Positions 3,965 to 5,702 of a DNA stretch of 10,108 nt are shown here, piece by piece. Source of the DNA: a virus; the UHGV virus genome UHGV-0351028. The stretch is one strand, 5' to 3'. The position numbers and the translations under genes are program-made. The notes beneath the pieces were generated by a model that was not told the DNA's origin, did no database searches, and saw only the letters and a program-made list of their open reading frames with translations. Position 1 is the first letter of the stretch. Each line of letters opens with the position of its first letter.

Positions 3965-4113
3965 TGGGCAAGGTGTTCTGGTCGGCGCATAGCTGGTGAA
4001 AAAATTATTTAATGCGGTGTATTGGCTGATTGTAACCCCATGTAACATCTTGCCGTCACCATTTCGGTGGTTAGATTTTTAATAAAAAAAACAAATGTAT
4101 AGCAAGGTTTTTT

Positions 4114-4593
4114 ATGGATAAAATTAATTACCCACCCCTGTTTGAGCCAGGGTTCCATGACATGGATGAAGCTGGATTAAAATCGTATTGTGTCGATTGC
4201 TTTCCTTCATCATCCAGGCGAGGCATGCTATACTGTAATTTTATACAGCTACTCGAATCTATTCGAGAATTATCTGCTCAATATGGCTGTTTTACAGAAA
4301 TATGGGTTGATGGTTCATACACCACGTCTAAACCAGAGCCTGATGATATTGATATTTTGTTGGTATGTGACTATAGCAATATAAACTCAATACCTGTCAT
4401 GCTTCGGGGCCGCGTCGATAATTTGCTTGACCGAAACTACATCAAACAAAACTACAAAATTGATGTCCTACTACTCATGAAGAATTTAGATGACCCTAAC
4501 TATGATTATGAGTACTGGCGTAGCTACTGGCGCGGTTGGTTTGGTTTTGATCGCAGTGAAAACCCGAAAGGGTTAGTGAGGATTTTTTTATGA
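4114..4593 (+). CDS. Hypothetical protein with a minimal nucleotidyltransferase (Pol-beta-like) signature; first gene of a cassette in the rexAB position
   Basis: 159-aa ORF. Motif G-S-x9-D-I-D (EIWVDGSYTTSKPEPDDIDILLV) fits the GS...DxD nucleotidyltransferase signature. Trp/Tyr-rich C-terminus. Visibly AT-richer than the flanking immunity genes. Not RexA or RexB. Confidence 0.8.
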   Translation: MDKINYPPLFEPGFHDMDEAGLKSYCVDCFPSSSRRGMLYCNFIQLLESIRELSAQYGCFTEIWVDGSYTTSKPEPDDIDILLVCDYSNINSIPVMLRGRVDNLLDRNYIKQNYKIDVLLLMKNLDDPNYDYEYWRSYWRGWFGFDRSENPKGLVRIFL

Positions 4594-5522
4594 ATGATAA
4601 ATCAATGTTTAAAAATTGCGATAAACGCATTGATTTCATTCAAAAAGAAGTCGATGCAATGAAGCAAAACAAAACCAGGTCCTTTGCTGACATGCTTCTT
4701 TATCGCTCCATGGATTCTCATCTGAGCGATTTGAAGGCCGAAAAATTAAAGCAAGATAGTCGGCACCCACTTATCGATTTTTTTGAGCTGCGGCTGAAAG
4801 GCTCTGAGGTTGACTTTGGCTCTATTCCTTTAGAGCTGCTTGGGGCTATTTCAACAAATCTTGCAGCGCTAATACAAAGAGCAACACACAAAATTGCCTC
4901 AGGCAAGGACTCAAAAAAAGTTCCCTACGACGTGAAAAGCTCCTTAAACCTCAGGCTGGCTGATTTATCCCCTGGGTCTACAAAATTGGGCGTCACCTTC
5001 TCTACAGGAATAGCAGAATTAGTAGAAACAGTACCCAGCAAGGCTGTAAAAGGCATATTCGATTTGTTGTTAAGCGATGACGACAACAACTTCATGAATC
5101 ACGTCGCTGAAATTGGATACAATTCCACTGTAAGCCTTAAGAGAATCGTAGAGGAATGCGATAAACACAACTTAACATTTGATGCAAGTTGGACCGGTCC
5201 ATTTAGTAATGGCACCAAGGTGGCAACTATTGACTCCAATAAAATTAAGTACTTGGTGAGTAGACTTACATCAACCATTTCATCCCCTCCCATTACTGAA
5301 ACGGTTACAGGCGAACTGGTCGTTCTATCCAAATATGGGAAGCTGGAGCTTGATGTTGGTGGTGAACATTTAAAGGCTTCCTATCCGATTGAAATGCTAG
5401 ATTTAATACAAAAAAAACACAAGGTCGGACAGATTGTTTCTCTTTTAGTGGAGACTACTGAGATTCACAATGATCGCATAGGTCTGTACCGTAAAAACCA
5501 TCTTGTTAAATCGGTTCTTTAA
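4590..5522 (+). CDS. Hypothetical protein (310 aa), translationally coupled partner of the nucleotidyltransferase-like gene
   Basis: Start ATG overlaps the upstream stop (ATGA, 4590-4593). No motif I can recognise. Long uninterrupted ORF followed directly by an intrinsic terminator. Confidence 0.8.
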   Translation: MNDKSMFKNCDKRIDFIQKEVDAMKQNKTRSFADMLLYRSMDSHLSDLKAEKLKQDSRHPLIDFFELRLKGSEVDFGSIPLELLGAISTNLAALIQRATHKIASGKDSKKVPYDVKSSLNLRLADLSPGSTKLGVTFSTGIAELVETVPSKAVKGIFDLLLSDDDNNFMNHVAEIGYNSTVSLKRIVEECDKHNLTFDASWTGPFSNGTKVATIDSNKIKYLVSRLTSTISSPPITETVTGELVVLSKYGKLELDVGGEHLKASYPIEMLDLIQKKHKVGQIVSLLVETTEIHNDRIGLYRKNHLVKSVL

Positions 5523-5529
5523 TATCTCA

Positions 5530-5555
5530 CCCGGCCACCGAGCCGGGTTTTCTTT
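5530..5555 (+). terminator. Rho-independent terminator after the cassette (tImm-equivalent)
   Basis: CCCGGC-CACCGA-GCCGGG hairpin (5530-5547) followed by TTTTCTTT. Confidence 0.75.
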
Positions 5556-5702
5556 GCCTACCCCCCCCCAAAAAAAACACATAACCAATTGTATTTATTT
5601 GAAAATTAATAGATACAACTCACTAAACATAGCAATTCAGATCTCTCACCTACCAAACAATGCCCCCTGCAAAAAATAAATTCATATAAAAAACATACAG
5701 AT

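Follow-up and report, generated by a model that had tools for sequence, protein, structure and literature searches.

The window analysed here, the whole 10,108-nt stretch of virus genome UHGV-0351028, is a lambdoid immunity region in the orientation opposite to that of the customary lambda map, and it carries a cassette of two genes, designated A and B, between the repressor gene cI and the OL/PL region. The order on the plus strand is cI, A, B, a terminator, OL/PL and N, followed by ral, a gene for an AAA_24 ATPase, abc2 and Ead/Ea22. Gene A (4114–4593, plus strand) encodes a product of 159 aa that matches Pfam DUF6932, PADLOC PDC-M63A and phrog_9194, and gene B (4590–5522, plus strand) encodes a product of 310 aa that matches PADLOC PDC-M63B and phrog_6603, with no Pfam family. 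The stop codon of A and the start codon of B overlap in the sequence ATGA (4590–4593, plus strand), an arrangement suggestive of translational coupling that recurs, with the same 4-nt overlap, in every Enterobacterales locus examined; Shine-Dalgarno-like sequences precede both A (AAGG) and B (GAGGA).

An intrinsic terminator (5529–5556, plus strand), homologous to the terminator that follows rexB in lambda, ends the immunity transcript and constitutes the right junction of the cassette. Its stem (5529–5548) comprises seven pairs, six of them G-C, and is followed by UUUUCUUU, corresponding to a U-run; the hairpin has a predicted folding energy of −13.6 kcal/mol (z = −2.86 relative to shuffled sequences). 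An earlier note on this DNA, made from its letters alone, had described two coupled genes on the same strand closed by a strong intrinsic terminator, and the open reading frames (ORFs), the overlap and the hairpin all bear this out. The note also held the pair to be AT-richer than the flanking immunity genes, which stands only in part: the cassette has 39.6% GC vs. 45.0% for the remainder of the window, a small difference, and within the window both cro (40.8% GC) and a gene for an HNH homing endonuclease (40.0% GC) are equally AT-rich. A hairpin between cI and A (4052–4071) was no better than shuffled sequence (z = −0.73), and we therefore do not claim an attenuator there; a search of positions 3900–6100 against Rfam retrieved no match. 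Just past the terminator, positions 5553–5578 contain a run of nine C followed by a run of eight A (CCTACCCCCCCCCAAAAAAAAC), the lambda equivalent being CGCCCCCAAAAC; relative to lambda, these tracts are an expanded homopolymer pair.

Position of the cassette in the rexAB slot

Alignments of the window with lambda and with the K-12 phage mEpX1 delimit the cassette on both sides. The left junction (3938–3995, plus strand) spans the final 27 bp of cI and the 31 bp that follow its stop codon and is common, with near-identity, to the three sequences; mEpX1 departs upstream of 3938 and lambda departs from 3996, past which lambda enters rexA, whereas the window and mEpX1 enter the cassette. The cassette-specific DNA amounts to 1,533 bp (3996–5528, plus strand) and stands where lambda has rexA-rexB. 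On the right side, similarity to lambda is regained from the hairpin (5529) and extends through OL/PL, while mEpX1 departs after the hairpin. Although the repressor of mEpX1 shows no relation to lambda cI elsewhere, the two genes have their last 27 bp (…QWPEETFG) in common, indicating that the recombination junction extends into the repressor coding sequence. With a conserved junction on each flank, homologous exchange would be possible, and the cassette probably replaced rexA-rexB by recombination at the 3′ end of cI and its linker on one side and at the immunity terminator on the other. We are highly confident of this anatomy and of the slot replacement: occupancy of the rexAB slot is exact and resolved to the base.

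The cassette from mEpX1 is 99.7% identical to that of the window, and copies with 99.6–99.9% identity, all of them chromosomal, were found in 18 of the 5426 complete E. coli genomes. These near-identical cassettes lie behind at least four different repressors: a lambda-type cI in the window and in strain HCP8S3_I1, the mEpX1 cI, a LexA-family repressor in strain PM7 and an S24 peptidase repressor in strain G3/10. The homologue of the window cI at locus L002 is itself annotated as "LexA family protein". The cassette is thus a mobile two-gene accessory unit. The earlier note had placed the pair in the rexAB slot between cI and PL and considered its genes unlike rexA or rexB, and both statements agree with our data: the linker and terminator are the same as in lambda, and BLASTP of the products against RexA and RexB gave no match below E 0.4. 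It had further proposed that this position is a hotspot for accessory cargo and that recurrence there should be looked for; the cassette and its homologues do follow repressors in other prophages, and the cI–N interval has been described as a mosaic and defence hotspot that holds RexAB and BstA (PMC8585504).

Conservation and distribution of the pair

Our first searches retrieved, at cluster level, 95 homologues of A and 72 of B. Full-length homologues of both proteins, at 21–99% identity, occur in many genera, and hence A and B are not chance ORFs. Gene A lies directly before B in each of the 23 homologous loci compared, which range from Enterobacterales to Bacteroidota-type relatives, and the two genes overlap in all of them except for two related loci that show a 10-nt gap. 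The pair is therefore conserved as a unit; the earlier note had named the opposite outcome, joined to the lack of a protection or toxicity phenotype, as grounds for refutation. The divergence of A and B is correlated (r = 0.90 over 91 locus pairs; r = 0.63 within Enterobacterales), with B diverging faster: in distant pairs, identity is 21–25% for B vs. 35–45% for A. A profile search with B against 1.84 billion cluster representatives (E ≤ 1e-3) returned 834 relatives, of which the best 150 are nearly all about 300–330 aa long, none of them with an added domain.

A scan of the genome collection with a closer alignment of B returned only 7 loci. Pairs located directly after a prophage repressor, with the 4-nt overlap, are found in Pectobacterium, Providencia, Proteus and Biostraticola; a second lineage from E. 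coli, at 55% identity and found in 98 of 5426 genomes, shows the same arrangement. In three genomes the gene upstream of the pair encodes a short helix-turn-helix (HTH) protein without an S24 domain, which we read as a prophage repressor. Distant homologues of A (34–46% identity) lie outside recognisable prophages and are followed by a gene for a protein of 309–312 aa that aligns with the full length of B at 22–27% identity. One of these distant pairs lies between a YoeB/YefM toxin-antitoxin module and a type I restriction-modification system, and another is in a mobile element together with Lar, RadC and a DNA methyltransferase.

The A gene is not intact in every strain. In E. coli KL53 (locus L017; NZ_CP030919.1, positions 1786266–1792550, with the locus at 1002–2819), gene A is split by the IS4-like insertion sequence (IS) ISVsa5; the cassette is otherwise identical, with B intact and the same terminator, and this strain is a natural A knockout tolerated by the cell. 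Truncated A genes are also present in further genomes.

Protein A

Protein A matches Pfam DUF6932 with an E-value of 1.7e-24 and the PADLOC model PDLC04744 (PDC-M63A) with 1.8e-41 over residues 1–158 of 159. Its putative catalytic motif, G67-S68 … D78-I-D80 (4312–4353, plus strand), has G67, S68, D78 and D80 invariant in 48 homologues, among which a third acidic residue, D117 (4462–4464), is conserved in at least 90%; the motif is also kept in 14 of 14 paired loci. Judging from these residues, A contains the classical catalytic set of Pol-beta nucleotidyltransferases (NTases), that is, hG[GS], [DE]x[DE] and a third carboxylate. We consequently consider A a minimal NTase of the Pol-beta/MNT type, predicted to be catalytically competent, in line with the nucleotidyltransferase signature that the earlier note, which mentioned a DID motif, had read in the first protein.

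Around half of the A relatives also match the Pfam families Polbeta, NTP_transf_2 and DNA_pol_B_palm. The AlphaFold2 (AF2) model of A has a predicted local distance difference test (pLDDT) score of 96, and the top Foldseek matches of this model are all NTases (2rff, 7ae2_B, 7ae9, CdnC and AAD(9)); minimal NTases and MNT antitoxins come first, and CdnC and aminoglycoside adenylyltransferases after them. NCBIfam contains no model that matches A or B, and a search of Protein Data Bank (PDB) sequences with the family profiles gave nothing significant for either protein.

A second, family-specific motif, the aromatic RSYWRGWFGF (residues 136–145; 4519–4548, plus strand), lies near the C-terminal end. 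R136, S137, Y138, W139, R140, G141 and F143 are invariant in homologues at 34–99% identity, the other three positions (W142, G144 and F145) showing conservation of at least 90%. This motif is altered in three enterobacterial loci, to RMYWRGVFCH in L019 (4531–5004), RMYWRGCFGY in L020 and RMHWRGVFCH in L022, all of which keep the catalytic GS and DxD.

Protein B

Protein B matches the PADLOC model PDLC04749 (PDC-M63B) with an E-value of 7.5e-45 over residues 23–304 of 310, together with five more M63B models. Neither the whole protein nor its two pieces matched any Pfam family, PSV_trans_reg_dom being the only hit and below threshold. The AF2 model (pLDDT 81.5) has two long helices at the N terminus, an alpha/beta domain in the middle and, at the C terminus, a unit of five strands plus a helix, and on this model B is predicted to end in an oligonucleotide/oligosaccharide-binding (OB) fold (about residues 235–309; 5292–5516, plus strand). 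Weak Foldseek matches to a class III adenylyl cyclase and to the Cas10 palm (E about 0.02) serve as a lead for the central domain only. No hydrophobic window above 1.6 was found in A or B, and B is thus without a transmembrane segment.

Residues conserved family-wide in B include R68, G71, G77, P80, K106 (invariant in a set of 11 sequences), G105, R122, G129-S130-T131, W201, S247 and N294, and they make up no recognisable catalytic set. The invariant G129-S130-T131 is in a loop predicted to be flexible, with pLDDT below 50. The sole Rx4H match in B (R40–H45) is not conserved, and the alignment contains no conserved Rx4-6H motif. Additionally, residues 62–146 of B (4773–5027 in the window) match the N-terminal 90 residues of PADLOC PDC-M32A (376 aa; E 3.4e-5), a similarity that hints at a domain common to two uncharacterised candidate systems.

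Catalogue status of the pair

From these profile matches, the pair belongs to the PADLOC-DB v2 candidate system PDC-M63 (M63A + M63B): there is a match to M63A, a match to M63B, and the two genes are adjacent and co-oriented. The earlier note had been unable to assign the pair to a named system and had proposed it as new, suggesting a search of defence databases; with E-values of 1.8e-41 and 7.5e-45 for its two PADLOC models, the pair is not new, since both proteins match a catalogued, unproven candidate. Identical genes have been deposited as encoding hypothetical proteins, both for phage mEpX1 and in RefSeq (WP_016063144 and WP_016063143), and the PHROG families matched by the two proteins are without an assigned function.

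Literature searches retrieved no papers on DUF6932 and, for PDC-M63, mEpX1 and the rexAB hotspot, no functional characterisation, these searches not covering Brenes & Laub 2025 (Cell Host Microbe), in which defences carried by E. coli prophages were reportedly screened against temperate phages.

Flanking genes of the immunity region

The lambda-type cI repressor gene (3251–3964, plus strand) was identified as an ORF whose 3′ end aligns with lambda cI, and a lambda PR consensus is present at 3203–3175 on the minus strand. The lambda-type OL operators and PL promoter (5700–5770, plus strand), outside of the cassette, are nearly identical to those of lambda, with the PL hexamers TTGACA/GATACT within 5737–5765; gene N follows at 6014–6397 (plus strand; Pfam N_peptide). 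The immunity region (2516–3964 plus 5560–6726) is a hybrid, in which cI, cro, OR and OL/PL are nearly identical to lambda, whereas the cII allele differs and the N gene is not that of lambda, with ral downstream of N; similarity to lambda after PL is lost at about position 5800. The PL operon of this prophage includes ral (6526–6726; antirestriction, 1.6e-48) and a P22 Abc2-type anti-RecBCD gene (8678–8974; 2.7e-37).

The minus strand of the window carries a primase-like ORF, an HNH homing endonuclease gene, a replication O gene, cII and lambda cro. The endonuclease gene (882–1376, minus strand), with NUMOD4 and HNH_3 domains, lies between replication O and the primase-like ORF (70–897), which it overlaps by 16 bp, and resembles a free-standing homing endonuclease inserted into the replication module.

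Possible function of the pair

Whether the pair has a role in defence or conflict is, in our opinion, evenly balanced. Our favoured reading, held tentatively and with slightly less assurance, is that the pair is expressed in the lysogen as an exclusion module, with B sensing or recruiting the target for nucleotidylation by A. In lambda, cI, rexA and rexB are on one transcript, initiated from PRM/PRE and ending at the terminator after rexB. Because the cassette is in the exact rexAB slot, by comparison with this lambda transcript PRM would drive its joint transcription with cI in the lysogen, as far as the common terminator, and the cI promoters PRM/PRE are the presumed source of its transcription in lysogens. 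A and B would be co-produced through translational coupling, and this coupling, together with their strict co-occurrence and co-divergence, suggests that the two proteins may form a complex. Within such a complex, the faster evolution of B, its predicted OB fold and its lack of a catalytic set point to a soluble specificity or sensor subunit, whose OB fold could bind single-stranded nucleic acid or a phage protein. A, in turn, would transfer a nucleotide to the target recruited by B, which might be the 3′ end of an RNA or DNA, a protein or B itself, and a superinfecting phage, probably temperate, would be blocked in a manner resembling rexAB or abortive infection.

We consider the particular mechanism, with B conferring specificity and A transferring nucleotides, to be doubtful. 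Slightly less credible still is the boldest form of the proposal, that PDC-M63 is a genuine and mechanistically new prophage defence, made of a split minimal NTase and an OB-fold partner that would recognise single-stranded nucleic acid or protein from a superinfecting phage and steer nucleotidyl transfer to the 3′ end of a nucleic acid or to a protein, thereby aborting the infection; if such a system were tuned to temperate competitors, the negative result against virulent phages would be explained.

The genomic context is consistent with a conflict system, including the matches to PADLOC candidates, the distant pairs near YoeB/YefM and type I restriction-modification or near Lar/RadC, and the location in the cI–N hotspot. 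Likewise, the cassette has a patchy distribution, undergoes rapid exchange and is seldom found (18 + 98 of 5426 E. coli genomes), a pattern typical of conflict genes.

Several observations weigh against a defence role. PDC-M63 is a computational candidate only, and the sole experimental test of it that we found in the literature was negative: PDC-M63AB was chosen in E. coli NILS69 as a prophage-borne pair, and its deletion left the plating of 10 virulent dsDNA phages unchanged, although the authors stated that the system had never been verified before and that their own phage panel was narrow (PMC12409345). There is no recognisable effector domain (nuclease, pore or NADase) in the pair. A has only weak structural matches (TM about 0.3–0.4, with a best E of 1.7e-3), and Foldseek gave nothing significant in the PDB for the central domain of B. 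Finally, one enterobacterial pair (L019, from Pseudocitrobacter) is not behind a repressor but at the end of a prophage, by dinI and tail-fibre genes, and one distant pair adjoins imuB/dnaE2 instead of defence genes.

The main rival to the exclusion module is a type VII-like toxin-antitoxin or addiction pair, in which an MNT-like antitoxin A would hold a toxin B inactive by nucleotidylation, for instance in its S130/T131 loop; a module of this kind would make the prophage more stable, or would fire once the activity of A drops. The gene organization, with a small NTase first and a 4-nt overlap with its partner, mirrors mntA-hepT, and the best structural hits for A include MNT antitoxins in complex with HEPN toxins (7ae2, 7ae9); B, however, is not a HEPN protein, as it is predicted to have an OB fold and its Rx4H is not conserved, nor does it match any toxin family. 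A modifiable site might be sought in the invariant G129-S130-T131 of the flexible loop, and the distant pair beside YoeB/YefM would also fit an addiction function. Conversely, an intact B with a split A, as in KL53, is unexpected if A is an essential antitoxin; this evidence is weak because the IS could silence B too, although truncated A genes in further genomes point in the same direction. Altogether, we deem a toxin-antitoxin pair improbable.

We give the same low credence to lysogen cargo without a defence function, which might modify or repair the ends of host RNA or tRNA, regulate lysogeny, or serve as a counter-defence that benefits the prophage. The combination of an NTase with an OB-fold nucleic-acid binder would follow the logic of RNA 3′-end-modifying enzymes, the NILS69 deletion showed no defence, and one distant pair is found by SOS-mutagenesis genes (imuB/dnaE2, DinB-like); against this, the patchy and rare distribution is that of conflict genes, and both proteins match candidate defence models in PADLOC. 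As for counter-defence, the early-left operon of the window already has genes of this kind (ral and abc2), but the location of the cassette in the lysogenic immunity transcript, and not in the early lytic PL operon, would imply, as in lambda, its production together with the repressor in the lysogen, which disfavours a counter-defence function in lytic growth.

A functionless or decaying hitch-hiker, or a pair of spurious ORFs, is very improbable and largely refuted by sequence conservation, for although the pair has no known phenotype and some copies are damaged (in KL53 by the IS, in L019, L020 and L022 through a degenerate C-terminal motif), both proteins are conserved at full length from 21% to 99% identity, the length of B is nearly uniform among the best 150 of its 834 cluster representatives, G67, S68, D78 and D80 are invariant, and the A–B order is kept in 23 of 23 loci, coupled save for the two with a 10-nt gap.

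Should the exclusion module prove active, it would be a defence without a classical effector and with a 159-aa NTase as its one recognisable enzyme, placed in the lambda immunity transcript, the best understood regulatory setting in phage biology; its genetics would be quick, because the cassette is carried by a cultivable K-12 phage, mEpX1. If inactive, the pair would call for caution in taking computational defence candidates as real systems. The exact rexAB swap, with the same cassette behind four repressors, offers a direct view of the exchange of cargo expressed in lysogens among lambdoid prophages.

Comparison with known systems

BstA, from prophage BTP1, is a defence cargo located directly downstream of the prophage repressor and presumably transcribed from the same promoter (PMC8585504), and in this its synteny follows the same logic as the A–B cassette. 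BstA is, nevertheless, a single protein with a DNA element for self-immunity and unrelated in sequence to A and B, and no PADLOC BstA model matched the pair, so that identity with BstA was rejected.

CBASS was also rejected, as neither PADLOC nor Pfam gave a match to a CD-NTase or an effector, CdnC being a weak fold match only (E 0.02). CBASS systems combine a CD-NTase of about 300 aa or more with an effector activated by its signal.

AbiE and MenA/MenT are defence or toxin-antitoxin pairs whose active part is an NTase of the Pol-beta superfamily that acts on tRNA 3′ ends, and this chemistry is a plausible analogy for the action of A. Protein A is about half the size of these NTases, and neither Pfam nor PADLOC gave it an AbiEii/DUF1814 match. 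The NTase gene is the second one in AbiE, an order opposite to that of A and B, and B is not an HTH protein of the AbiEi type. In the absence of any such Pfam or PADLOC match for A, B or the 48 relatives of A, we rejected an assignment to AbiE/MenT.

With HepT-MntA, the pair has in common a small Pol-beta NTase with GS … DxD that is encoded first and overlaps its partner; moreover, MNT antitoxins rank with the top structural matches to A, and about half of the A relatives match MNT Pfam families. The partner in HepT-MntA is a HEPN protein, whereas B, of 310 aa, has a predicted OB fold with neither a HEPN fold nor a conserved Rx4-6H, and A carries the invariant RSYWRGWFGF, which MNTs do not have. 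As B is not a HEPN RNase, identity with a type VII HEPN-MNT system was rejected.

RexAB is likewise made of two genes in the same slot, after cI and before the common terminator and OL/PL, and in both cases the presumed expression in lysogens is from the immunity transcript. The proteins themselves are different, with no sequence similarity in the BLASTP comparison described above; RexB is a multi-pass membrane protein with 51 hydrophobic windows and A and B have none, and A is an NTase by its predicted active site, unlike RexA. Lacking both homology and a membrane partner, the pair was not considered a form of RexAB.

The system to which the pair belongs by its profile matches, PDC-M63, agrees with it in the adjacency and strand of the genes and in prophage carriage, as seen in the NILS69 copy, with no difference at the sequence level.

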